A stretch of DNA of 31,520 nucleotides from a virus (Duplodnaviria > Heunggongvirae > Uroviricota > Caudoviricetes): the IMG/VR virus record IMGVR_UViG_2917870735_000002; one strand, given 5' to 3'. Shown piece after piece: positions 1 to 31,520 of the stretch (position 1 is its first letter; the number at the start of each line of letters is the position of its first letter). Made by a program: the position numbers and the translations under genes. The notes under the pieces were generated by a model that was not told the origin of the DNA, did no database searches, and saw nothing but the letters and a program-made list of their open reading frames with translations.

Positions 1-129
1 CTATTTATCGGAAGGTTTATCTTGCTGCGGTTTGTTGTTGACCATATCGCACAACATCGAGAGCAGCATTAACCGTACTTTAAAGGGAGAGTGACTAAAC
101 ACGCGCATACACCTCTTGAACTCATTCAT
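1..129 (-). CDS. small hypothetical protein (42 aa)
   Basis: Not in ORF track (<60 aa). ATG at 129-127 on minus strand with AGGAGG about 5 nt upstream; stop TAG at 3-1. Translation MNEFKRCMRVFSHSPFKVRLMLLSMLCDMVNNKPQQDKPSDK. Function unknown. Confidence 0.35.
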   Translation of the reverse strand: MNEFKRCMRVFSHSPFKVRLMLLSMLCDMVNNKPQQDKPSDK

Positions 130-296
130 AAGACCTCCTGACTTGCTAATCCCGTCGATCCATGAGGGATGATTGCATTACATACAGATATAGCACAGGC
201 TATATTATAAAGCATCAACTATCTACGAAAAACAATAACTTACAGTGTTATCAATAAGTTGCGTTAGTTAATATCTGTGAGTATTCGGCAGTATTT

Positions 297-1337
297 CTAA
301 GCTGTCGCGACATTTTTGCGACATTTTAAGGGGTTAAGTCGCACGGCATCTTCAAGGTGGCTTGGGGCGAAATGGGCATAACGCATTGTCATAGTGATGT
401 CAGCGTGGCCGAGAATTTTTTGCAGAACCAGAATGTTTCCGCCGTTCATCATAAAGTGGCTGGCAAATGTATGGCGCAGTACATGGGTAAGCTGGCCGGA
501 GGGGAGTTCAATGCCTGCACGTTCCAGAGCAGAGCGGAAAGCGTTGTAGCAGGGCTTGGGGAACAGAGCGCCTTTTGTTTCAGGTAATTCGGACAGAAGT
601 TCATCATCAAGGGGAATTGTTCTGTTGCGCTTCCCTTTGGTTTTGACGAACGTGACTTTACCCCCGGCGATCTGGGAGCTTTTCAGCGTTGCCGCCTCAT
701 TCCACCTTGCGCCGGTAGCAAGGCAGATTTTGACAACTAATTCTAGGTACTTAACTTTACTTCGTTTGCATTCCAGTAAAAGCCGATCAATTTCTTCGGT
801 AGTGAGGAAAGCCATTTCGGTTTCATCAGTACGATACTGTCTGACGTTTTCTAGTGGGTTGGGTGCTGACCATTCACCAATCCGTTTCAGCTCGTTGAAC
901 ATAGCCAGGAAGTAAGCATGTTCAAGGTTCATAGTTTTCGGGGAAACCTTAGATACTCTGTTGGTACGGGCATAATGCCCATCCAGCCTTTTAGCGCGGT
1001 AGGCTGTGAACAACTGGGCATTAAATTCTGTGGCCAGCGGGAATCCCATGCATTCCGCCGCCCAGGTCATAGCATTTTTACGCTTTTCGCCATTGCTCAA
1101 AGCTACGCCGTGGCGTTCATACCACATGTTGATTAGGTCGCTTAGAGTACGGAGGTCTTTACCCTCGCCAAGCCAGGGGGAGTTCTCCACTTGCTGAAGC
1201 GTATAGTTCTCGTAGGCCAGGGCTTCGCCTTTTGTAGCGAATTTTTTACGAATACGCTTACCGGCTTTACCATTGCTTCGATCCACCGTGTAGAAATCGG
1301 CAATCCACTGGCCATTTGTTAATTTTCTTACAGACAT
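297..1337 (-). CDS. int: tyrosine integrase, P2 Int family
   Basis: 346 aa. N-terminal GKxGKRIRKKF arm-binding motif; catalytic region LATGARWNEA ... HVLRHTFASHF ... LGHADITMTMRYAHF (R, H-x-x-R, Y) as in P2 Int from memory. 3' end faces the left flank, as in P2 where int reads towards attP. Confidence 0.93.
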   Translation of the reverse strand: MSVRKLTNGQWIADFYTVDRSNGKAGKRIRKKFATKGEALAYENYTLQQVENSPWLGEGKDLRTLSDLINMWYERHGVALSNGEKRKNAMTWAAECMGFPLATEFNAQLFTAYRAKRLDGHYARTNRVSKVSPKTMNLEHAYFLAMFNELKRIGEWSAPNPLENVRQYRTDETEMAFLTTEEIDRLLLECKRSKVKYLELVVKICLATGARWNEAATLKSSQIAGGKVTFVKTKGKRNRTIPLDDELLSELPETKGALFPKPCYNAFRSALERAGIELPSGQLTHVLRHTFASHFMMNGGNILVLQKILGHADITMTMRYAHFAPSHLEDAVRLNPLKCRKNVATA

Positions 1338-4921: not shown

Positions 4922-4967
4922 AAACACCACTAAAATGTCTTTCGCCATCGCTTCTTGAGGCCAGCAT

Positions 4968-6989
4968 ATGATGTTGGCCATAAAGGAACACTTCTATGTT
5001 GTCGATACGTGGCGGCGTGAAACTTTCGCATCTTGCATACCGGCAGACGCGACAATCACAGAACGCCGTTTGTGGGCTGTAAATCCGCAGGATTATGAAT
5101 GGAGAGTCCGGTACCTGCATGAGATACCCGACTGGTTAGCCGGGTATTTTGGCCGTCGTTACGAAAAGCTGTTTGCTGGTCGTGACGGGCGTTGTCGTGC
5201 CAATACATTCCTGCGCCAGACTATCGGCGGGAGTGTATTGCCACGTCTGCGCAAAGTGGCTGCGCGTTACTCGCTGGCCGCTGACGCTGCCGATCTTCCT
5301 TTTGGTAAGTCGCTGGCGCGCTTGCCGTCACTAGACCGTCCTGATCTTAAAAAACTGGCTGGCCAGGTATCTGGCTGGATTTCCCAGTCACTTTATGACT
5401 TCACCGAACAGTTTGACTCCAGCACTGACGACGCCAGAGAGCTGCATCGCCGCACCTTGGAATCATACCGCCATCTTTGCGCGGGTTGCCTGATGCTGAA
5501 TAACCAGCCGCCGTACTGGGCTGAACATGAGGCCAATGAAGGTCAACTGGAAATGCGTAAGGCGGAATCCGGGATACTGCGCATGATGGCGCCGGAATGG
5601 TGGTACCTACGTCTTAAACGTGCGCGTGATATGCAGCGCGAACATATGGCCATCGCGGTGGGACAGGTACAAAAAGCGGCCAGCGCTTATGTATCCCGCA
5701 AAACACTGGACGAATGGATAGACCAGAAAAAGCGGAATCTGGAGTTCTTTAAAAAGTTTGATCTGCTGAATGATGAGGGGCTGCGCATTGCACTGGACAG
5801 CATGGTGCACCGCAGCGTTGCAAATCCGGCGATCCGTCGATGTGAACTAATGGTAAGAATGCGAGGGTTTGAAGATATGGCCAATGAAGAAGGGCTGGCC
5901 GGTGAGTTTTACACCATCACCGCGCCATCACGTTTCCACGCAGTGCACAGCAAAGGTGGCTTTGTATCGCAATGGGATGGATGTACACCGCAGGATACCC
6001 AGCGCTATTTATGCGGCGTATGGGCAAAAGCACGCGCAGCGATCTCGCGTGCGGGTATTCATGTATTTGGGTTTCGGGTTGTTGAGCCACACCATGACGG
6101 GACACCGCACTGGCATATGTTGCTTTTTATGCGTCTGCAGGACGTGGACACGGTACGCGATATTCTTTGCTATCACGCCAGAATTACCGATTCTGAGGAA
6201 CTGCAATCTGAAAAGGCGCTTAAGGCACGTTTTCACGTTGAAGCTATCGATCCCGACAAAGGTTCAGCCACGGGCTACATCGCGAAATACATTTCAAAAA
6301 ATATTGATGGTTTTGCGTTGGATGGTGAGCAGGACGAAGAAACCGGCGAAAACCTGCGTGATATGGCTAAGTCCGTTTCTGCATGGGCTTCACGCTGGCG
6401 CATTCGTCAGTTTCAGCAGATTGGTGGTGCGCCGGTAACCGTCTGGCGTGAGCTGCGTCGGTTGCGGGATCTGGTGCTGACAGATCGCAGAATGGATGCG
6501 GTTCTGGCCGCTGCTGATGTTGGCGATTGGGCTGCATACACCCAAGCACAGGGTGGCGCACTGATTGCCCGCCGTGATCTGGTTGTTCGTCTGGCCTATG
6601 AAATTACGGAACAGGGCAACGAGTACGCAGAGGACGTGCAGCGCGTACAGGGGGTTTATTCTCCTTTGGTTCCTGATTCGGAAGTTTGCACCCGTCTGGT
6701 TAAGTGGCAAAAGGTTGCGAAGTTGGCCGAAGCGCCAGCGGAGGCGGGGTTTTCTGGCGGCAACGCCGCCCCTTGGAGTTCTGTCAATAACTGTACGGAG
6801 GGGGGAATCCTCAGACGGTTAAAACTGGAATTATGCAGTCGGGGTTTTAACGGTTCTAATGAAGAAATAGCCATTCTCCTACGGGGTAGTGGTTTGATGT
6901 TTGGCCAAGGGGGACTGGTTTACCGTAATGGGTGGCTTAAAGAGATTCAAAACGAGCCATTAAACGAGTTATGGCCGGGGTGGGTCTAG
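4968..6989 (+). CDS. A: replication initiation protein A (rolling-circle nicking endonuclease, P2 gpA family)
   Basis: 673 aa; ATG 4968 with GAGG upstream. His-hydrophobic-His motif (HHDGTPHWHMLLF) and tyrosine/lysine motif (TGYIAKYISKN) typical of rolling-circle initiators. Size comparable to 186 A and P2 A from memory. Confidence 0.85.
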   Translation: MMLAIKEHFYVVDTWRRETFASCIPADATITERRLWAVNPQDYEWRVRYLHEIPDWLAGYFGRRYEKLFAGRDGRCRANTFLRQTIGGSVLPRLRKVAARYSLAADAADLPFGKSLARLPSLDRPDLKKLAGQVSGWISQSLYDFTEQFDSSTDDARELHRRTLESYRHLCAGCLMLNNQPPYWAEHEANEGQLEMRKAESGILRMMAPEWWYLRLKRARDMQREHMAIAVGQVQKAASAYVSRKTLDEWIDQKKRNLEFFKKFDLLNDEGLRIALDSMVHRSVANPAIRRCELMVRMRGFEDMANEEGLAGEFYTITAPSRFHAVHSKGGFVSQWDGCTPQDTQRYLCGVWAKARAAISRAGIHVFGFRVVEPHHDGTPHWHMLLFMRLQDVDTVRDILCYHARITDSEELQSEKALKARFHVEAIDPDKGSATGYIAKYISKNIDGFALDGEQDEETGENLRDMAKSVSAWASRWRIRQFQQIGGAPVTVWRELRRLRDLVLTDRRMDAVLAAADVGDWAAYTQAQGGALIARRDLVVRLAYEITEQGNEYAEDVQRVQGVYSPLVPDSEVCTRLVKWQKVAKLAEAPAEAGFSGGNAAPWSSVNNCTEGGILRRLKLELCSRGFNGSNEEIAILLRGSGLMFGQGGLVYRNGWLKEIQNEPLNELWPGWV

Positions 6990-7614: not shown

Positions 7615-8676
7615 TCATGCCGCACCTTTATCTATTGATTCTATGTAACTTAAATCAAAGTTTAGGTGCAACCTTTCCGGTATTTCGGGATCGTTGTTTA
7701 CGGCCAGCATGAAACGGCGCTGGATGGGGGCAATTTCGCTTTTCTTATAAATGCGTTCAGCCTTTTCAACATCCCCCAGTCCGGCAGTGTTCTGCGGGAC
7801 AATACCGGCGAGGCCGGCAGGGAAACGGTGCGCGTTCAGAATATCCTGGGCGCTGATGTTCTTGATGTTGGCAAATTCATCCTTAGCAGAAATATCACCC
7901 ATTTCAATGAATTTGATGGCGTCGCCGTCTCCACCGGGAATGTTTACAAGGATGGTGGAGAAGTTCCCGATCCCTTTGCTGTCACGCAGCTGCTGTTCAA
8001 TTTCTTCCTCCATTTCGTCCGTCATGCTGGGATCGCGGGTATAAAGAATTCCGCCTGTGTGTGCACCGTTGTGGTAGTAGCGGCGTCGGAAAATGACCGC
8101 TTCACTGTTAAGTAACGCGGAATGCACACCGCCGATGTAGTCCGGCAGTCCGTAGATATGCTGTTGAGGGTCATACATTTTGATAAAGATAATATCTTCT
8201 TCTGGCCATATCTGCGGTTCCCCTTCCTGTAACACTACGTAGTCACCGGGCTTATCCAGGGCGTTATCTCTGACTTTGCGGCGGCGTATATACAGACCGG
8301 GTAAGGGTTCAAGTGCGATCACGTCTCCCCAGCCGTTACGAATTTTGGCAATCGCAATATCCCCAAAGGTTATATAGTCATACGCTGCCGCTTCCAGCTG
8401 GTCGTGAATAAGTCCGCCACCCAAGTAATCTGAAACAATCATGTTTTTGCGGGCGTGAATGATGCCGCCGTGCTGACCGTTAAGATTAATCAGCTGTGCG
8501 AGTGCCAGCCGGTCAATCGGCTGGGTGAAGTGATCGGCGGCATTGTCGTACCAGATATCACGGTAATCTGTGCCGGTAGTCAGAACCGGTTCAGGTTTGC
8601 CGAATGTGATAATGCTCATCTTTTTTGATTTGTCGCCGCGCTGGTCGCGCTTAACAAAGCGTTTCTTTTTACTCAT
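7615..8676 (-). CDS. Q: portal protein (P2 gpQ family)
   Basis: 353 aa; conserved blocks (GLPDYIG...LNSEAVIFRRRYYHNGAHTGGILY; DILNAHRFPAGLAG...GDVEKAE) match P2 Q from memory. Start ATG overlaps terminase stop (ATGA). Confidence 0.92.
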   Translation of the reverse strand: MSKKKRFVKRDQRGDKSKKMSIITFGKPEPVLTTGTDYRDIWYDNAADHFTQPIDRLALAQLINLNGQHGGIIHARKNMIVSDYLGGGLIHDQLEAAAYDYITFGDIAIAKIRNGWGDVIALEPLPGLYIRRRKVRDNALDKPGDYVVLQEGEPQIWPEEDIIFIKMYDPQQHIYGLPDYIGGVHSALLNSEAVIFRRRYYHNGAHTGGILYTRDPSMTDEMEEEIEQQLRDSKGIGNFSTILVNIPGGDGDAIKFIEMGDISAKDEFANIKNISAQDILNAHRFPAGLAGIVPQNTAGLGDVEKAERIYKKSEIAPIQRRFMLAVNNDPEIPERLHLNFDLSYIESIDKGAA

Positions 8677-10609: not shown

Positions 10610-11413
10610 ATGTCACATTTAAAAACTGACTGGCTGTGTGTTGCTACTGAAGGGGATACCGTTGATGGCAGGGTAATTAAACGGCAGTGGATCATTGATA
10701 TGGGGGAAACCTATGACTATAGCCACTATGTCGCTTTAATCTGGCCAGAACATGAGGATGATTGCGGGAATTTTGGTGAAGTGCTGGAAGCCACCTGGAA
10801 TGATGGTGAAGATGGACAGGCACGGTTATATGTCAGCCTTTGCCCGAATATGCGTCTGATTTTCGCAAATCATGAAGATCAGCTTTTGTTCTTCTCCATT
10901 GAGCCGGAAGATAACTGGCGCGGTAGCGGGCGTACTTACCTGAAAGGGCTGGCGGTAACAGATACACCTGCCAGCGTTGGCACCACACGGCTGCGCTTTA
11001 GTAGTCGGCGCAATAAATTAACAAAGCAGGGATATTACAGCTGTGTAATTTCCCGCGACGGAAAAATTAAACAGGAAGCAAGAATGAAGAACTGGCAGAA
11101 ACTGTTTGGTATTAAGCCAAAGTTTGAAGATGAAACGACGCAGGATAATCTTGCTCCGGATGAAGATAAATTACAGGCGCTTGCCAATGTGGTGAACGAT
11201 CTGGAAGCGCGAGTGGCGAAAATTGAAACTCAACTGAATGACGTTCAGGGTGATGTTGACACAATTGCTGAAGTGGTGGATACGCAGGAATTTGCGGCAA
11301 TTCGCGATAATGCAAAAGAAATCGTAACCCGCTTTAACGAACTGGGTAATAAAAACACCCGTACACCGGGGCGTACTATAAAAGATAAAGCCGGGAAATT
11401 TAATTTCCTGTAA
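10610..11413 (+). CDS. O: capsid scaffolding protein (P2 gpO family)
   Basis: Track ORF from 10574; ATG 10610 gives MSHLKTDWLCVATEGDTVDGRVIKRQ, matching P2 O N-terminus (VEGDTCDGRVI) as I recall, plus GLAVTDTPAS block. Long purine-rich G-run upstream. Confidence 0.82.
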   Translation: MSHLKTDWLCVATEGDTVDGRVIKRQWIIDMGETYDYSHYVALIWPEHEDDCGNFGEVLEATWNDGEDGQARLYVSLCPNMRLIFANHEDQLLFFSIEPEDNWRGSGRTYLKGLAVTDTPASVGTTRLRFSSRRNKLTKQGYYSCVISRDGKIKQEARMKNWQKLFGIKPKFEDETTQDNLAPDEDKLQALANVVNDLEARVAKIETQLNDVQGDVDTIAEVVDTQEFAAIRDNAKEIVTRFNELGNKNTRTPGRTIKDKAGKFNFL

Positions 11414-25042: not shown

Positions 25043-25559
25043 TGGCGAGGCCATCCAGCTGAAAAACATGCGGGTGACTGTTTCACAGCAATTTCAGGAT
25101 AAAGATCAGTCCGGCCAGACCAGTGCCACAACAAAATCAGAGCAGGGAGCAAAGGGAAAGGAACTGCGGATCAGCGGTGAAATACCTTTTAAACAGCCTG
25201 AAGTACTAAAGCGTATTTTTGAGCTGGCCAGTACTACCGATGCCAGTGGTAATCGTCAGAAATATCGCGTGGTGCATGAAGTTGCCCGTGCTGTTAACTT
25301 TCGTGAAGCAACGTTCAGCGGAACGGTGGATGCACCCCAGCAGGACGGGAAGATGTCCTGGTTGGTGACATTCACACTGGCGGAACATATCAGCGTGCAG
25401 GAAAAGCAAGAGGCCAGGGCAACAGGTAAGACGACCGCAAAAAAACAGACTGCCGGTAGTGCGGGACAGTCCGGTGGCCAGTCTGCCGGAGAAGATGAAG
25501 AAAAACTGACGTGGTTTGAACGCAAGGTACTGAAGCCCGTCAATGATGCTTTGGGTTAA
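25014..25559 (+). CDS. putative tail protein (gpU position, 181 aa)
   Basis: ATG 25014 with AAGGGA upstream; precedes large distal tail gene; positional assignment only. Confidence 0.4.
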   Translation: MTSIPTLALNGEAIQLKNMRVTVSQQFQDKDQSGQTSATTKSEQGAKGKELRISGEIPFKQPEVLKRIFELASTTDASGNRQKYRVVHEVARAVNFREATFSGTVDAPQQDGKMSWLVTFTLAEHISVQEKQEARATGKTTAKKQTAGSAGQSGGQSAGEDEEKLTWFERKVLKPVNDALG

Positions 25560-27262
25560 TGATGAAACCAGTAAAACGCCTATACCTTTCAACGGATGAA
25601 GTTCACCTGGTGGATGCCAGCCTGGTACTGGAGCTGAACAGCTGCGGCCGGGGCTTCATCACCGCAGAGACAACAACCGATTACACCGGAAAACTGGTGA
25701 GGCTGGATGTGGGGTATACCGAACTGCTTTTGCGCTGGTTTACGGGGTATGTGGAGCGATCGCAGCCCGCTGAAAACGGTTTTCAGCGTCTGTTCATTCG
25801 TGAGTTGGCAGGTGTGTTTGAAAGGATGTGGCCATGTTCGTTTCAACACCCGACTTTGCGTGAAATTGCGGTCTGGTTGGAAGAAAATAGCGGGATCACG
25901 GTCAGTGTGCCTGACGCACAGTACAGCGATACCCCTATCCCACATTTTACCCATAACGGTACTGGTTATCAGTTGCTGAACAATCTGGGAAGGGCGTTCA
26001 GTATCCAGGATTACATCTGGTACCAGTTTCCTGATGGTTCGCTTTACGTCGGTGGCGCAGAAAAGTCATTGTTTGCCGGTCGTCCCGTAGAAATCCCATC
26101 AGAATTCAGCCAGGGGGCTGCTGGCGGTAACTCTGTGACATTACCAGTGATCCAGACTATGCGGCCAGGGGTGGAGATGAACGGTGAACGCGTGACTAAG
26201 GTTCATCTGACGAATGACACGATGGCGATCACATGGATGCCGAGAAACCGCGTAACGGGTAAACCTTTGCAGAAAACACCGGCACAAAGGCAGATTGAAA
26301 GCCATTACCCTGAACTGGCATCTGGGCTTCATTTGCCAAAGATGGCCAGAGTCGTGGCGTATTCAGAGCCGGTAAAAAGCGGTAACTTTGCCGATCCCTT
26401 CCGACCACGTTACGCCGTGGACGTGCAGCTTCTTGACGCAGACGGAAACCCGGACAATCAGACACCTGTTTATTCAGCGGTGCCGTTGCCAGTACCGATG
26501 GCTGGGAATGATTCAGGTATGTTTCAGTTTCCGCCAGAAGGGACGCTGGTTGAGGTTGCATTCACGGGAGGCAGACCTGATAAACCCTTTATCAGGCAGA
26601 CGCTGCCGGATGGTACCAGCCTGCCGGACGTTAAACCCGGTGAGCAATTGCAGCAGCAGCGGGAAGAAGTATCCCAGAGGGTGACTCAGGCTGGAGACTG
26701 GGTAAGGCAGACCGATCAGACCATCAGTGAAACATCGATGGTGCGAACGGTAAAAGCCGATACGGAACAGCGCGAACTGGTCAGCCGTGAAACCGCGGTG
26801 AAAGCTACGGATAAAACTACGGTACTGGGAACCGCCATATTGCTGGCTGGAGCCATCCAGCAGGTCAGCGCCGGTGATTATAGCCAGGCGGTGAAAGGTA
26901 ACAGGCTGTCCAGTATTGAAGGAAACGAAGAAACGGACATAACAGGACTGCAGTCCACTAAAGTGGGGGGGGCTGTAGTCGTGGAGGTTGGCGAAAGCCT
27001 GACAGAGAAGATTGCAGCACTGCGTAAATCAGTAGCCACTGGAGGTCAGCAGGTCATGGGGGCAACTGTCCATATTGGCAGTGAGAGTATCAACGCCCTG
27101 ACCATGATGCTGGACACCATTGATTTACTGGAAGAGCTGGCGCAGCTATGTGCGAGCCATTCTCATCCCTCCGTTGGGATGCCAACCAATGCCGCCGCGT
27201 TCACCCAGACAGGGACGAAAGCCGGGCAGACCCGGGAAAAATACCAGGGGATTATTGCCTAA
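25559..27262 (+). CDS. putative baseplate hub / late control D-like tail protein (567 aa)
   Basis: TAATG-coupled to upstream gene; last gene of late operon as gpD is in P2; no firm motif recognised. Confidence 0.4.
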   Translation: MMKPVKRLYLSTDEVHLVDASLVLELNSCGRGFITAETTTDYTGKLVRLDVGYTELLLRWFTGYVERSQPAENGFQRLFIRELAGVFERMWPCSFQHPTLREIAVWLEENSGITVSVPDAQYSDTPIPHFTHNGTGYQLLNNLGRAFSIQDYIWYQFPDGSLYVGGAEKSLFAGRPVEIPSEFSQGAAGGNSVTLPVIQTMRPGVEMNGERVTKVHLTNDTMAITWMPRNRVTGKPLQKTPAQRQIESHYPELASGLHLPKMARVVAYSEPVKSGNFADPFRPRYAVDVQLLDADGNPDNQTPVYSAVPLPVPMAGNDSGMFQFPPEGTLVEVAFTGGRPDKPFIRQTLPDGTSLPDVKPGEQLQQQREEVSQRVTQAGDWVRQTDQTISETSMVRTVKADTEQRELVSRETAVKATDKTTVLGTAILLAGAIQQVSAGDYSQAVKGNRLSSIEGNEETDITGLQSTKVGGAVVVEVGESLTEKIAALRKSVATGGQQVMGATVHIGSESINALTMMLDTIDLLEELAQLCASHSHPSVGMPTNAAAFTQTGTKAGQTREKYQGIIA

Positions 27263-27316
27263 TGCTGACACTCACATGATAAGTTGAAACGTTCTGGACT
27301 TGCTGATAGCAGTATT

Positions 27317-27913
27317 TCAGTTGTTGTGTAGTTCAAGATAGTTAGAGGTGGAGTGCGTATCAAGCGGTAGTAGTTGTGCGGCTCTGCGGGTTATAAAGAC
27401 ACTATTGGCAGGAATGTTTCGGTTAACGAATGACATAGCACCAATTGTCACATTATCACCAATGGTCAGATCATCACCGATGATGCATGAATTTGCGCCA
27501 ATCTCGACATTGTCTCCGATCCTGATGGCTTTGATTCCTTCAACTGTTTTTAATCCAATCGTTGTGTTTTGTCGGATACGAACATTTTTTCCAATCACAG
27601 CCTGGGGACAAATGACTATTCCAACGAAGTGATAAATTTTGAATTTTTCCCCGATCTGTGCCCCCAATCCAATATCAGTATTGTATTTTGAAACAAGTCT
27701 CCGGTGGATTCTTCGTGCCCACTTAATACTTGATTTCCCTCCCTGACAGTAAAGGCAATTCGCTATCCTCCACCAACACATGAATCTGTGTCCGGGTTGT
27801 CTCCAGCAACGTAGTATGATTCTCCTCCAGGAGAAATTTTTACTGCTGTGCAGTATGTCCGCGCACAACAACTTCTTCATATCCTCATAATGCGACTTTT
27901 TGTTGTTGCTCAT
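27317..27913 (-). CDS. hexapeptide-repeat acetyltransferase, serine acetyltransferase (CysE)/WcaB-like
   Basis: 198 aa; ATG 27913 with AGGGAGA upstream. Helical N-terminus (HRFMCWWRIANCLY) then left-handed beta-helix repeats (DIGLGAQIGEKFKIYHFVGIVICPQAVIGKNVRIRQNTTIG ... IGDNVEIGANSCIIGDDLTIGDNVTIGAMSFV) paralleling the CysE core pattern. AT-rich; convergent with the last tail gene. Confidence 0.75.
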   Translation of the reverse strand: MSNNKKSHYEDMKKLLCADILHSSKNFSWRRIILRCWRQPGHRFMCWWRIANCLYCQGGKSSIKWARRIHRRLVSKYNTDIGLGAQIGEKFKIYHFVGIVICPQAVIGKNVRIRQNTTIGLKTVEGIKAIRIGDNVEIGANSCIIGDDLTIGDNVTIGAMSFVNRNIPANSVFITRRAAQLLPLDTHSTSNYLELHNN

Positions 27914-27928
27914 AAATTATTCTCCCTA

Positions 27929-27945
27929 ATAATCCTGAGGATTAT
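27929..27945. promoter_or_regulatory. 17-bp perfect palindrome ATAATCCTGAGGATTAT adjoining the acetyltransferase RBS
   Basis: 8-bp arms around a central G, verified base by base; 16-32 bp upstream of the start codon at 27913. Confidence 0.45.
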
Positions 27946-28466
27946 CGTACATGAGAATGATCTGATTTTCTGCTAACAACATTAAGTTATGTGGTCGGAA
28001 CTGATAATTGGCTACTTAATCCCAAATAATTAGTTGAATTACTAACAAAACATCTTTCTTATCTTGTCATAGATGTCGGCAGAGGGATTATTAACCCTTT
28101 AATAACAAACCTAACTTGGTCACTAAGTATAAAAGAACAGAATTGTAGCGTTGCGCTGGTATGGTGATATGGCGACAAAATAAATCCTTTGCAGACAAAA
28201 ACGGCGCTACACCGCACCCGCCTGCGGTTTCTGGATCTGGAAAATTTTTCAGTTTTATTTTTTTACAAACAGCACCGCCAGACCGCGCCACGGTTGGCTG
28301 CTTGCCAAAGAACAGGAACTGAAAAGATTGAAAAGAATTTCAGCATTTTTCAGTTTAGAGGATCTGTAAAGGATCTAAGTGGAAAGGCAAGCAATTGAAA
28401 TATAATAATAAATTTTATATTTGTGGAGTGGAGAAGATCAAATGTCGAAGGCAATGTGTAGGAGGA

Positions 28467-28499
28467 AAAACCCGCAATGCCAGTTGTGGTGCGGGTTTT
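28467..28499 (-). terminator. rho-independent terminator-like hairpin (10-bp stem AAAACCCGCA/TGCGGGTTTT, 13-nt loop)
   Basis: Perfect stem verified; on the minus strand the stem ends in UUUU followed by UCCUCC; about 70 bp downstream of the minus-strand 122-aa gene. Confidence 0.55.
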
Positions 28500-28566
28500 A
28501 GGGGGATTAGATTAAATTCAGAAAGTGAAATTAGCATACCTATACTTTAAGTGCGCCAATAGGTAA

Positions 28567-28935
28567 TCAATTTTCATCAATATGACTTTCGTTTTCATCT
28601 TTGTACCATGTGGGCAAATTATCTGTAATTTGTTCATTAATTACATTTTGAGTGTCAGCAGGTAGCAGTTTAAAAATCTCAAAAATAAAGTTTGATATTT
28701 CAACTTTTACATCAGCAGTAGGGCCATAAAAATCATCTTTAACATAATCCCATTTATGCTTTATTAAAGTTGATTCTGGATATTGTATTTTGACTAAGCC
28801 AATTTGTTTGTAAATCCAATTTATGGCGCTATCTGCTCCAGAGAAGGCCTCATTACCGCTATTAATAAATGGCCCAACATCATAGACACGTTTAGTGTTA
28901 TTATCTAAAACTCTTACATAACAATTGGTTGCCAT
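28567..28935 (-). CDS. hypothetical small acidic protein (122 aa)
   Basis: ATG 28935 with AAGGTGG upstream; 15 bp after the 104-aa gene on the same strand; AT-rich; acidic C-terminus. Confidence 0.6.
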   Translation of the reverse strand: MATNCYVRVLDNNTKRVYDVGPFINSGNEAFSGADSAINWIYKQIGLVKIQYPESTLIKHKWDYVKDDFYGPTADVKVEISNFIFEIFKLLPADTQNVINEQITDNLPTWYKDENESHIDEN

Positions 28936-28950
28936 ACCCCACCTTTTTTA

Positions 28951-29265
28951 TTAGCCAATGTACCGTACACGATTGCCGTTATATAATGGCCATTCGTTTA
29001 GCAAATCTCTAAGTAGTCTTTCCATGTGAGTTGCATCTTCTGCTGCATTTTTTCCAACATAGTCATTTCCACGTTGGAAAGTTTCATAACGCATTGCCAT
29101 TGATGGGGTGTTTTCTTCAAAGCCAATTGGAGACAAATCATTTATTTGTGTAACTGCTACATCGCCAGATTTAGATACCCAGAGAATATGATGACCTGCG
29201 TTATCGTCGCAAGCAGAGATTAGTTGTGAGAGTTGGCTTACTGTAGGGTTATTGTTTAAGTTCAT
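28951..29265 (-). CDS. hypothetical small protein (104 aa)
   Basis: ATG 29265 with AAGAGG 8 nt upstream; first gene of a two-gene cassette. Confidence 0.6.
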   Translation of the reverse strand: MNLNNNPTVSQLSQLISACDDNAGHHILWVSKSGDVAVTQINDLSPIGFEENTPSMAMRYETFQRGNDYVGKNAAEDATHMERLLRDLLNEWPLYNGNRVRYIG

Positions 29266-29474
29266 TTAAATACCTCTTTTAATAAGATTTAGTTATAACG
29301 TAAAACAAGCCACAAATTGATTATCTATCCTCATAGGCTGCATATCAACTTTAGATTTTAGGCGGTGTGGATCGTGGTAAGCCAGAGATTATAGAGATAA
29401 GCCCGCTTGTAAGAACTGGCGCGGGCTGCACGTAAATTTATGAAATCTTCACAACTGAAATTTGTTCAGCGAAA

Positions 29475-30101
29475 TTACAGCACTGTTTCTGCGGAACGGG
29501 ACGCTTCTTTTGTCGCATTGCCAGTGATAAAAGGCTGCTTTTCCTGATATTCCGACTGCGGTAGTTTGGATGTATACACTGGCGTGATCTTGTTTTTATA
29601 AACGGTGTCACTGGGGATGTTCTGAAGCACCAGTGAATGCGCACCAATGGTGACATTGTTTCCGATTGTAATCTTGCCGCCCAGAATGGACGAGTTACAG
29701 CCAATATCAACATGATCACCAATGATTATCATTGCGTCGACACTGTCGGTGCGTAACCCTATGGTGATGCCTTGCTTCAGGTCGGCGAAATCACCAATCA
29801 CGCAATTGTCAGTAATGACAATACCGTTCAAATGAGCAATGTTTAACCCCTTGCCGATTTTGCACGACAGAGAAATATCAACGCTGTGCCGGTACTTGAG
29901 GCGGTTTTCAATTCTGCGGGCAATGCGCTTTTTGAACTTACTATTCTGGCCATAGAGCCATGAAGCAATACGCCACCAGAACAGGAAGTGCTTCTTCTGG
30001 TTGCGTCGGGTACGAAGTAACGCTTTACGCCATGAAAAGGCTTTGTCATGGCCAATGACTTCAAGGCGGATACATTCTTTACGATGGTCGTAGGAAGTCA
30101 T
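29475..30101 (-). CDS. hexapeptide-repeat acetyltransferase, CysE/WcaB-like (divergent paralog of 27317..27913)
   Basis: 208 aa; shares N-terminal motif (FSWR..., WWRIASWLY) and beta-helix repeats (IGDFADLKQGITIGL ... IGDHVDIGCNSSILGGKITIGNNVTIGAHSLV) with the other acetyltransferase. Confidence 0.75.
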   Translation of the reverse strand: MTSYDHRKECIRLEVIGHDKAFSWRKALLRTRRNQKKHFLFWWRIASWLYGQNSKFKKRIARRIENRLKYRHSVDISLSCKIGKGLNIAHLNGIVITDNCVIGDFADLKQGITIGLRTDSVDAMIIIGDHVDIGCNSSILGGKITIGNNVTIGAHSLVLQNIPSDTVYKNKITPVYTSKLPQSEYQEKQPFITGNATKEASRSAETVL

Positions 30102-30210
30102 GATTAGTCATCCTGACAGAATATTATAGGTACTTGAAATTATGCTTCCATTTGATTGCTAATGGAAGAGAATGGCCATATTTTGAATTTTATAAAAAAT
30201 ATGAGGGAGT

Positions 30211-30245
30211 ATCACCCTTACCACTCATGGAGTGGTAAGGGTGAT
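30211..30245. repeat. 35-bp inverted repeat ATCACCCTTACCACTC-atg-GAGTGGTAAGGGTGAT (16-bp perfect arms)
   Basis: All 16 pairs verified; between the 411-aa gene stop (30285) and acetyltransferase 2 start (30101). On the minus strand a T6 run lies about 10 nt after the stem. Confidence 0.8.
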
Positions 30246-30284
30246 TGAACTAAGTAAATATTGTAGAATAATCGAGCTAAAGTT

Positions 30285-31520
30285 TTAGAGGTGAAACCAA
30301 GAATAAGTAGCTTCATCTTTTTCAAAAATATACTGTATATGTAATTCAACTAACCAGAGACTAACTATTTTAAGCGTAAGTTTATTACATAAATGAATAT
30401 ACCTTGTATAACTTATTTCTCTTTCAGCTCCTGTACCCCCACTTTTGTATCGAACAGATTCTCCATCATGCCATATTGATGCGTGATGCGAGCCATTCCT
30501 AATTGTAGATTCTAAATCATCTTCACAAAAGGCGGTAAATAATTCATTGTCTTTAAATGGATTTATCTTTCCTTCTTTATTAACATCTTTTATATATTTG
30601 TTTAGTGTCATTGTTTTGAATTGATCAAAACTCCTTCCATTAATAATGTTATTAATGCAGGCTAATATTGTCATGTTAGATGTTAAAGTTTCATAAGCAT
30701 CACCATAGTAATTACGGATTTTATCAAAGTTTTTTGAACTGATGATTTTGGTGTCAATTTCATCGTTGTTTATTCTTGCGTAATATATTAGTTGGCCAAA
30801 ATGATCTCGACGAGACATGAAGTCTGATATGATGTTTATATATCTTTGTTGATTTTCAACCTGTAGGTTTTGTTTATAAAATTTATAGAAATCGTCCAGT
30901 AATCCATTTTTTTTAAGCTCGTCAATTTCTAGCTTTATAGGTTCGGCAATGTCATGAACACGAGGGTAGAAAAGCCAATCTAAAAACTCATAACTAATTG
31001 AAGTGAAAGAGTACATTGAATCCTTTTTGTAAAGAGGTAATTCTTCATTTCGTGACTGCATGTATAATTTTGCTGTACGCTGTGCTTTTTCTATTTCCCC
31101 ATTGTTAATAAGTTTTGCAATGGATTTTAAATAAGCCCATTTTGACGGAGCGTTAGGAATATCAAATTGGTGTGAAATGCTGATAATTCTTTGTCCAGGT
31201 GGCATCCTCATATGCTTATGGAGCATGCTCGTTAACTCAAGGGATGGGAAAGTTGTTGGTGAATGAATTTCATCTTTGTCGAAAGCACAAGCTGGGTGAA
31301 AATTAACTACTTTATGTTCTAAGCTATATTCAACAATAATACAATTTTCTTCAACTTGAATGTAAGCGCTGGGGGGAATAGCTTTTACAGCAAAAACAAT
31401 TGGCATATTACATTCAAAACAATCCATGAAATGCTTTTGATATTTATCAATTCCGACCCCAACCCTTACACGATAAATAGCGTTACATGACTGACATTGG
31501 ATGCTATTACCGATTACCAT
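30285..31520 (-). CDS. hypothetical Cys-rich protein (at least 411 aa); zinc-ribbon-like N-terminus; 5' end at window edge
   Basis: ORF runs to the last base; first ATG is at 31520-31518 so the true start may lie outside. N-terminus has CQSC-x22-CFEC spacing; very AT-rich; no recognisable catalytic motif. Confidence 0.6.
   Translation of the reverse strand: MVIGNSIQCQSCNAIYRVRVGVGIDKYQKHFMDCFECNMPIVFAVKAIPPSAYIQVEENCIIVEYSLEHKVVNFHPACAFDKDEIHSPTTFPSLELTSMLHKHMRMPPGQRIISISHQFDIPNAPSKWAYLKSIAKLINNGEIEKAQRTAKLYMQSRNEELPLYKKDSMYSFTSISYEFLDWLFYPRVHDIAEPIKLEIDELKKNGLLDDFYKFYKQNLQVENQQRYINIISDFMSRRDHFGQLIYYARINNDEIDTKIISSKNFDKIRNYYGDAYETLTSNMTILACINNIINGRSFDQFKTMTLNKYIKDVNKEGKINPFKDNELFTAFCEDDLESTIRNGSHHASIWHDGESVRYKSGGTGAEREISYTRYIHLCNKLTLKIVSLWLVELHIQYIFEKDEATYSWFHL

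Follow-up and report, generated by a model that had tools for sequence, protein, structure and literature searches.

The window analysed here, IMG/VR virus record IMGVR_UViG_2917870735_000002 (31,520 nucleotides), closes with a low-GC region at positions 27263–31520 that carries five minus-strand genes. As judged from sequence comparison, this region is a recombination-prone cargo hotspot of a P2-family prophage, bounded by the last tail gene, the cohesive-end (cos) site and the attachment (att) site. We consider it probable that the hotspot, of the 'moron' or defence type, comprises two variable slots flanking cos and that its contents were acquired as independent units. Slot R, from the last tail gene to cos, holds a gene for an acetyltransferase of 198 amino acids (aa); slot L, from cos to the right attachment site (attR), holds a gene pair encoding 122-aa and 104-aa proteins, a gene for a 208-aa acetyltransferase and a gene for a 411-aa protein. 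In the proposed account these would count as four units, with the 198-aa gene in slot R and the 104–122 operon, the 208-aa gene and the 411-aa gene in slot L.

The original prediction, made from the sequence alone, had described a sharp drop in composition after the stop of a 567-aa tail gene and five minus-strand genes beyond it, and both descriptions are borne out. GC content is 0.50 over positions 1500–27262 compared with 0.376 over 27263–31520, and sliding-window GC falls from 0.55 to 0.29–0.42 directly past the tail-gene stop at 27262. The five open reading frames (ORFs) are the only substantial ones past this point and, because all of them fall in conserved protein families, we regard them as genes and not as chance ORFs.

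Two variable slots around cos

To place the window, we compared it with loci and genomes of relatives, labelled L001–L042. Its backbone is 92–93% identical to Escherichia phages ESSI2_ev015, ev129 and ev040 (Peduoviridae, Quadragintavirus), and its exact protein sequences are recorded from Escherichia sp. E5028. These matches identify the window as an HP1-like, P2-family temperate prophage (Quadragintavirus) of Escherichia sp. E5028, lying between mntS and mntR. The left prophage boundary is marked by the reverse complement of host mntS (1..129, minus strand): window positions 1–374 are 96% identical to L006 11209–10837, the mntS side of the E. coli mntS–mntR interval, and L006 carries a called 42-aa MntS gene (PF26599) at 11081–11209. 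The 17-nt core of the left attachment site (attL), GACATTTTTGCGACATT (= CGACATTTTTGCGACAT), lies at 309..325, within the 3' end of int (297–1337). An exact repeat of this core is found in the sibling prophages L004 and L006 at 7773–7789, beside mntR and 212 bp upstream of the 411-aa gene. With mntS at the left and the repeated core near mntR in the siblings, the window thus runs from attL to just short of attR, and the unseen attR should, by this comparison, lie about 212 bp beyond the window end. The element from the attL core to the predicted attR would measure about 31.4 kb, which is normal for a P2-family genome.

The left anchor of the hotspot is the 567-aa gene (25559..27262, plus strand), the last late gene, which encodes a baseplate hub/spike protein with weak matches to Phage_base_V, Gp5_C and Gp5_trimer_C and is syntenic with an HP1_ORF34-like gene in all relatives. 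Among these relatives, the interval from the 567-aa gene through cos to att shows at least ten different contents. Cronobacter phage ESSI-2 has no cargo around cos; ev129 and L028 have one acetyltransferase; ev015 has the 122-aa and 104-aa genes and an acetyltransferase; and ev040 has an acetyltransferase to the left of cos and an AbiJ-like protein (Abi_C; PADLOC AbiJ, E = 3e-16) to the right. An acetyltransferase accompanies a HEC-04-like ABC ATPase (E = 3e-33) in L003, and a DUF6338 protein accompanies PDC-S64 (E = 2.5e-47) in L002 and two small genes in L031. The 411-aa homologue stands alone in L004–L009 and in the IMG/VR contig L033, and the 104+122 pair stands alone in the Salmonella loci L013–L015; in Yersinia L016 and Serratia L042 the pair is joined by two other small genes. 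Recognised defence genes (AbiJ-like, HEC-04-like ATPase, PDC-S64) therefore occupy the same slot in siblings, and the virion-derived genomes ev015, ev040 and ev129 carry acetyltransferases and 104/122 at this locus. The suggestion that the phage carries accessory cargo here, beyond its tail genes and near an unseen right attachment site, thus holds up on three grounds (the att core repeat, the virion genomes and the variability of the locus), and the variability among related prophages that the original prediction had proposed to look for proved to be high.

The integration sites of close relatives also vary, and include a tRNA, the mntS–mntR interval, mug–rpoD in Salmonella, and smpB/ssrA in Yersinia and Serratia. 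Phage ev015 has another integrase module, with the 3' end of a tRNA-like sequence beside int (L001 2060–2226, attP region). From these differences it follows that close relatives integrate at different sites and retain the same cos-side hotspot.

The cos site lies inside the region. A conserved non-coding block at about 28173..28380, with motifs TTTTTCAGTT and ACTGAAAAGATTGAAAAGAATTTCAG, is 78–96% conserved in phages and prophages of E. coli, Salmonella, Yersinia and Cronobacter, whatever cargo flanks it. Within it we assign the 15-nt cohesive end, CTACACCGCACCCGC, to 28207..28221, based on the ends of ESSI-2, adapter junctions and the layout of phage HP1. The complete-genome record of ESSI-2 has the 15-mer CTACACCGCACCCGC at both ends, and the identical 15-mer is present at window 28207–28221. 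In three independent virion assemblies (ev015, ev040 and ev129), a Nextera adapter adjoins the genome within the same 15 nt, which is the pattern expected at a physical DNA end and so supports cos. The order cosL (1–9), attP (251–694) and int (698–1711) in the HP1 record matches the layout here, and the gene preceding the last tail gene matches Pfam HP1_ORF34. By these sequence comparisons, the block is an HP1-type cos between the last tail gene and attP–int.

Since cos separates the 198-aa gene from the remaining four, the 'island' is split between the two ends of virion DNA. In the virion, the 198-aa gene would be the last gene at the right end and the 122-, 104-, 208- and 411-aa genes would be the first at the left end. 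Once the DNA is circular, or integrated as a prophage, both slots make one region around cos.

The adapter sequence (CTGTCTCTTATACACATCT.../...AGATGTGTATAAGAGACAG) is contained at cos in the public RefSeq records NC_049395 (ev015), NC_049393 (ev040) and NC_049394 (ev129), at L010 1–50, L011 ~930–975 and L012 1–50, equivalent to window 28207–28221; in ev040 it is internal to the record and bridges both genome ends. Other readings of the conserved block were rejected. It is not an RNA gene, as it matched no Rfam family and no tRNA or tmRNA. An attP or attB identity, suspected when about 50 E. coli chromosomes matched the block without annotation, was dismissed since the block is internal in intact prophages, where cargo and the true att core lie further out. 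ORFs are annotated over it in ev015 (62 aa, minus strand), L003 (88 aa, plus strand) and L004 (84 aa); we take them to be spurious, as their lengths disagree, and those of ev015 and L003 also differ in strand.

Repeats and motifs flank the cohesive end. Just left of cos, the E. coli prophage L003 (~4930–4990) has a tandem expansion of GGCGCTGCGCT-like units, of which the window (28145–28165) and other relatives have one or two copies; these units may be a variable terminase-binding (cosB-like) array. To the right, the motifs TTTTTCAGTT and ACTGAAAAGATTGAAAAGAATTTCAG..TTTTTCAG (window 28242–28262 and 28315–28356) are conserved in all relatives, and in HP1 (L026 30–46) TTTTTTCAGTT lies about as far from the left end. 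These motifs are probably binding sites for packaging proteins or for integration host factor (IHF).

The 411-aa protein and the 104/122 pair

The 411-aa protein (30285..31520, minus strand) has an N-terminal zinc-ribbon/beta domain followed by an alpha-helical domain. It had been described as a Cys-rich protein of at least 411 aa, and both parts of this description need correction. The protein is complete: the window's final three bases form its ATG, and its homologues (195, of 396–420 aa) align from residue 1. Nor is it especially rich in cysteine, with nine Cys residues, four of them in an invariant CxxC...CxxC. The family comprises 537 clusters at 50% identity (175 with E < 1e-30), of a uniform length of ~400 aa, and ranges over Enterobacterales, Vibrio, Shewanella, Aeromonas, cyanobacteria and Bacteroidota. 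Invariant residues are C9, C12, C34 and C37 (the zinc ribbon), R341-N-G-S-H345-H346 and G361-G-T-G364. The second of these groups conforms to the HEPN motif, a conserved Rx4-6H for which R-N-x-x-x-H is the signature, and both R341 and H346 are invariant in 41 diverse homologues. An AlphaFold model is confident (pLDDT 89.5, pTM 0.90) and places the N-terminal beta domain ahead of the helical domain, whose structural resemblance to HEPN RNases is weak.

Searches with this family yielded little from reference collections. We found no model for it in Pfam, PADLOC or NCBIfam, and hhalign gave a probability of 0.3% for a relationship with the AbiJ-like protein of the sibling phage. A profile search of 1.84 billion representatives returned the same architecture again, together with shorter variants without informative domains. 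Across Pfam, PADLOC, NCBIfam, PHROGs and PDB sequences, the 411-, 104- and 122-aa proteins drew only weak matches to Cys_rich_CPXG and to phrog_13366, a family of unknown function, and a full-text literature search by the accessions of these proteins found no paper.

The genomic contexts of the 411-aa family are those of mobile DNA. The gene is always solitary, with gaps on both sides, and is found in prophages, in integrative conjugative elements by RelA_SpoT, methylase and ArdC genes, in a Vibrio conjugative element, and beside a cyanobacterial integrase. In the integrative conjugative elements L019–L022 (7802–8827), a 341-aa RelA_SpoT-domain protein neighbours a 419-aa homologue of the 411-aa protein; this neighbour may be another defence-type gene.

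We tentatively propose, from the invariant residues and the structural model, that the 411-aa protein could act by itself as an RNase of the abortive-infection type, which an infecting phage would switch on and in which the zinc ribbon would serve as a sensor or regulatory domain. A survey (Anantharaman et al. 2013, PMC3710099) lists a cyanobacterial protein, Npun_R5629, under the architecture 'zinc ribbon + Abi2/Swt1 HEPN'. Compared with the single-protein HEPN RNases (AbiD/AbiF = Abi_2, AbiJ, AbiU2, AbiV), the 411-aa protein has no HEPN profile match, and it differs from them in an extra invariant SGGTG loop and in an inserted beta-hairpin that follows the motif. Of the units in the region, the 411-aa family offers the most promising lead and is a reasonable candidate for a new anti-phage gene.

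The 122-aa and 104-aa genes form a closely coupled pair. The 104-aa protein (28951..29265, minus strand; isoelectric point (pI) 4.95) is the conserved core of the pair, and the 122-aa protein (28567..28935, minus strand; pI 4.6), encoded by the second gene, is its faster-evolving partner; both are acidic and soluble. The genes are separated by 15 nt that contain a Shine–Dalgarno sequence, and the best promoter-like site upstream of the 104-aa gene, from a consensus scan only, is at 29320..29348 (minus strand; TTGATA-17-GATAAT, 10/12 matches). The 104-aa protein is 64–79% identical across Enterobacterales, with relatives in Pseudomonas, Marinobacter and Chlorobium, and combines an invariant N-terminus with several invariant, enzyme-like polar residues. 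From Enterobacterales to Chlorobium, M-N-L is invariant and N4 nearly so, which is unusual for an N-terminus. The 122-aa protein is 57% identical in Salmonella and 48% identical in Yersinia, each time syntenic with the 104-aa gene; its family yielded only eight clusters, and it had no match in Pfam, PADLOC, NCBIfam, PHROGs or PDB. The pair is syntenic in Escherichia, Citrobacter, Salmonella, Yersinia and Serratia, and in distant taxa other neighbours replace the 122-aa gene beside 104-aa homologues.

Like type II toxin–antitoxin systems, the pair consists of two small, closely coupled genes; neither a toxin domain nor a DNA-binding antitoxin domain was found in either protein. In Pseudomonas, a gene array with a 104-aa homologue includes an Imm-NTF2-2 immunity gene and also AbiTii and AbiH genes. 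The pair might be a two-protein exclusion or immunity module, an assignment that we hold to be rather doubtful. A broader proposal, on the unlikely side, is that the 411-aa protein is an undescribed, widespread single-gene anti-phage system (a zinc-ribbon sensor with a highly divergent HEPN-like RNase) and 104/122 a second new module with a fold not in PDB, both in an undescribed cos-straddling hotspot of HP1-like Peduoviridae.

A different role, in which 104/122 and possibly the 411-aa protein serve the phage itself or guard against other threats, as anti-defence proteins or as orphan immunity proteins that counter bacterial toxins, and need not act in anti-phage defence, would fit the acidity of both small proteins (pI 4.6–4.95) and their lack of a nuclease- or toxin-like domain, the Imm-NTF2-2 gene in the Pseudomonas array, and the position of the genes at the very end of packaged DNA. 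However, the genes point the same way as int and the repressor, and a promoter-like site and a terminator of their own accompany them, like morons expressed in the lysogen; the same Pseudomonas array contains AbiTii and AbiH, and the slot holds defence genes in siblings. We therefore judge this role to be unlikely.

Two beta-helix acetyltransferases

The 198-aa protein (27317..27913, minus strand) and the 208-aa protein (29475..30101, minus strand) are paralogues with 43% identity to each other, and the former is 89% identical to the product of the ev040 gene in the same slot. Both match phrog_2154 (E = 5.9e-58 and 8.6e-54, respectively). The 198-aa protein, which is CysE/WcaB-like, scored 46.8 bits against Hexapep (E = 1.8e-12; cut-off 27); the 208-aa protein scored 24.7 bits, slightly under the cut-off, and matched 31 solved beta-helix acyltransferases (best E = 7e-15). 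By these profile and structure-sequence matches, both proteins belong to the hexapeptide-repeat (left-handed beta-helix) acyltransferase superfamily.

The original prediction had called the two proteins CysE-like, which is apt as a description of fold; they are not serine acetyltransferases. The best NCBIfam matches (EpsC, CysE and WcaB) reached 64–88 bits compared with cut-offs of 150–210; for the 208-aa protein, EpsC gave 87.8 bits against a cut-off of 150 and cysE 81 bits against 210.65. The two proteins missed the CysE equivalog cut-offs (TIGR01172/NF008349), with 81 and 70 bits for cysE compared with 210.65, and 62 and 46 bits for PRK11132 compared with 397. Matches of the 208-aa protein to serine acetyltransferases in PDB (~E 1e-14) cover the beta-helix part only, and matches to CysE chains begin at chain residue ~105–125. 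Neither protein has a match to Pfam SATase_N, and the stretch before the beta-helix is only ~70 residues long. The catalytic His is kept, and the DIHP, DH and GDRHP motifs of solved serine acetyltransferases are replaced: in alignment with chains 7bw9 and 4n69, which show these three motifs, the 198-aa protein reads DIGL, YH and GIKAIR, and the 208-aa protein reads DISL and AH in the first two places and has no RHP in its sequence. From the sub-cut-off scores and replaced motifs, we infer that these are CysE/WcaB-like O-acetyltransferases with a different substrate, and that the database name is misleading.

CysE's CysK-binding tail ends in Ile. True serine O-acetyltransferases, acting as auxiliary metabolic genes that raise cysteine synthesis or the level of the CysB inducer O-acetylserine, would agree with the NCBI annotation 'serine acetyltransferase' and with CysE and EpsC as the best PDB and NCBIfam matches. 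Against this stand the scores far under the cut-offs, the missing SATase_N, the replacement of DIHP, DH and GDRHP, and C-termini (…LELHNN and …AETVL) that are unlike the CysK-binding tail, and we regard such an activity as very unlikely. A literature search for a tie between serine acetyltransferase and phage defence found nothing relevant.

Gene neighbourhoods offer another clue. Homologues in phrog_2154 adjoin tail-fibre, tail-fibre-assembly or other tail genes in unrelated phages (E. coli vB_EcoM-613R2, Hafnia yong2 and Streptococcus thermophilus 9871), and the 198-aa gene likewise adjoins the last tail gene. Tail-adjacent phrog_2154 genes named 'serine acetyltransferase' lie at L036 283–846, L037 3492–4037 and L038 3507–4034. 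By analogy with WcaB, WbbJ and the prophage enzyme NeuO, the two proteins could be cytoplasmic enzymes that acetylate a cell-surface polysaccharide precursor in the lysogen and thereby change a phage receptor (lysogenic conversion or superinfection exclusion), a proposal for which we see the chances as evenly balanced. NeuO of prophage CUS-3, which acts on the K1 capsule, sets the precedent: a prophage can carry an enzyme of this fold that alters a surface glycan.

WcaB and WcaF (colanic acid) and WbbJ are likewise small cytoplasmic hexapeptide beta-helix enzymes of ~160–210 aa, and WcaB models match the acetyltransferases here at E = 1e-17 to 1e-19. Unlike WcaB and WbbJ, the proteins here score far under the cut-offs and have no polysaccharide gene cluster nearby. 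Solved CysE structures can be aligned with them over the beta-helix core and the catalytic His (E = 1e-12 to 1e-16); in contrast to CysE, they have a truncated N-terminal helical domain, lack the serine-binding residues and fall under the equivalog cut-offs.

Independence of the modules and comparison with known hotspots

The modules of the region differ in composition and signals. GC content is 0.31, 0.39, 0.43, 0.47 and 0.33 by module, compared with 0.50 for the backbone. The hairpins attributed to these genes were found for three of the four transcription units. A strong hairpin follows the 411-aa stop (30211..30245, minus strand; perfect 16-bp stem, dG −28.1 kcal/mol, z −7.2), the 104–122 operon has a canonical intrinsic terminator after the 122-aa stop (28467..28499, minus strand; 10-bp stem AAAACCCGCA/TGCGGGTTTT, then U5), and a weak hairpin follows the 208-aa stop (29400..29427, minus strand; 7-bp GC stem and 14-nt loop, with z −2.15 for a 90-nt stretch). 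No hairpin was found after the stop of the 198-aa gene. In ev015, ESSI-2 and other relatives, a strong late-operon terminator (GCCCGC...GCGGGCTTTTTT) directly follows the tail gene (L010 190–236, L027 150–198). It is missing at window 27263–27316, where the 198-aa gene is inserted, and late transcription may therefore read antisense into that gene.

The original prediction had seen the five genes as the best candidate for one undescribed accessory system. In such a cooperating system the acetyltransferases might, for example, modify a target sensed by the 411-aa protein and 104/122. The genes are indeed contiguous, in the same orientation and of low GC, and an acetyltransferase is often beside other cargo (104/122 in ev015, the ATPase in L003, and AbiJ across cos in ev040). 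However, each module occurs alone in some sibling phage; the modules are set apart by hairpins or terminators, by gaps of 180–650 bp and by GC differences; cos lies between the 198-aa gene and the rest; and the 411-aa family is solitary on unrelated mobile elements. The differing slot contents, together with the GC differences between modules, thus rule against a single five-gene system, which we consider highly improbable.

One locus resembles host DNA. L006 (GCA_017730315, 7500–11300), which was compared with window 1–374, 26797–27234, 28174–28356 and 30285–31499, could be read as island DNA at the same chromosomal site in a strain without the prophage, which would have pointed to host DNA. 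It is instead a decayed prophage at mntS–mntR: a deletion has removed about 26 kb from int to the tail gene and has spared attL, cos, an intact 411-aa gene and short pieces of int (78 bp) and of the tail gene (its last ~440 bp). Because L006 lost 26 kb and still keeps attL, cos and the 411-aa gene, it is not native host DNA, and its cargo outlived the phage. L002, L029 and L030 are similar remnants that retain cos-side cargo. That the region belongs to the host chromosome, or is an island of its own beside the prophage, as the 411-aa gene and conserved block between mntS and mntR of L006 with almost no phage genes, and the lack of a 411-aa gene in any sequenced virion genome of the phage collection, might suggest, is a most improbable account, given the phage sequences kept by L006, the att core repeat outside the cargo, the acetyltransferases and 104/122 between cos and int in the virion genomes ev015, ev040 and ev129, the 411 homologue in the same slot of a 30-kb IMG/VR viral contig, and the P2-family size of the ~31.4-kb element from attL to the predicted attR.

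In the account that we prefer, a variable cargo hotspot around cos, the units would have been acquired independently, and recombination at the tail gene, cos and att/int, which serve as conserved anchors, could exchange cassettes. The acetyltransferases would modify a surface glycan precursor in the lysogen. In the 411-aa protein, a zinc-ribbon/beta domain would be coupled to a helical domain with RNxxxH, such that an infecting phage would trigger an abortive-infection RNase, and 104/122, with a conserved 104-aa core and a fast-evolving 122-aa partner, would act in exclusion or immunity.

Several points weigh against parts of this account. PADLOC 2.0 recognised none of the five proteins. A Foldseek search of the 411-aa model against PDB gave no match, and no HEPN Pfam family matched any of 41 family members at E ≤ 1. 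The 104- and 122-aa proteins have no homology to a known function and no fold match, and such small acidic proteins would also suit immunity or anti-defence. For the acetyltransferases, tail-fibre adjacency is circumstantial, the sequences indicate no glycan substrate, and classical phage O-antigen acetylases are membrane proteins. The cos cleavage positions were deduced from database records.

None of the four resident units has a characterised function. Three uncharacterised modules are singled out at a place where siblings carry AbiJ-like, HEC-04-like and PDC-S64 genes, and the well-anchored hotspot (tail gene, cos and att) of these HP1-like coliphages can be mined across Enterobacterales for new cargo. 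The 411-aa family, which is large, taxonomically broad, confidently modelled and intact in a decayed prophage, is for these reasons an inexpensive and promising candidate for testing. The annotation 'serine acetyltransferase' of the common phage family phrog_2154 is probably wrong, and tail-gene adjacency points to receptor modification.

Hotspots of P2-like phages, including the old/tin locus beside cos, have been described (Rousset et al. 2022, PMC9122126), as have further ones, one of them between integrase and att (bioRxiv 10.64898/2026.02.27.708500). In the P2 family, defence genes are found in hotspots near cos and att; of eight unknown loci from P4-satellite hotspots, six protected when tested (PMC9122126; bioRxiv 10.64898/2026.02.27.708500). 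The region here resembles the P2-like hotspots of these two studies in lying in a Peduoviridae prophage, in its variable content between anchors, in its position next to cos, in the defence genes of relatives, and in its low-GC units with their own expression signals. It differs from them in that PADLOC 2.0 covers none of its five resident genes. Unlike in P2, where cos lies between the replication and portal genes, cos here lies between the last tail gene and attP–int, and from this HP1-type position it follows that the hotspot flanks cos on both sides and ends at attR. The type of locus, a prophage cargo or defence hotspot, is already known; that it straddles an HP1-type cos has not been pointed out before. 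Phage HP1 itself (NC_001697) has the same order (tail genes, then cos, attP and int), an HP1_ORF34-like gene ahead of the final tail gene, and the TTTTTCAGTT motif 25–40 nt inside the left end. HP1 has ~250 bp and no cargo between cos and attP, whereas the phage here has 3.3 kb of cargo there and a 0.6-kb gene across cos.

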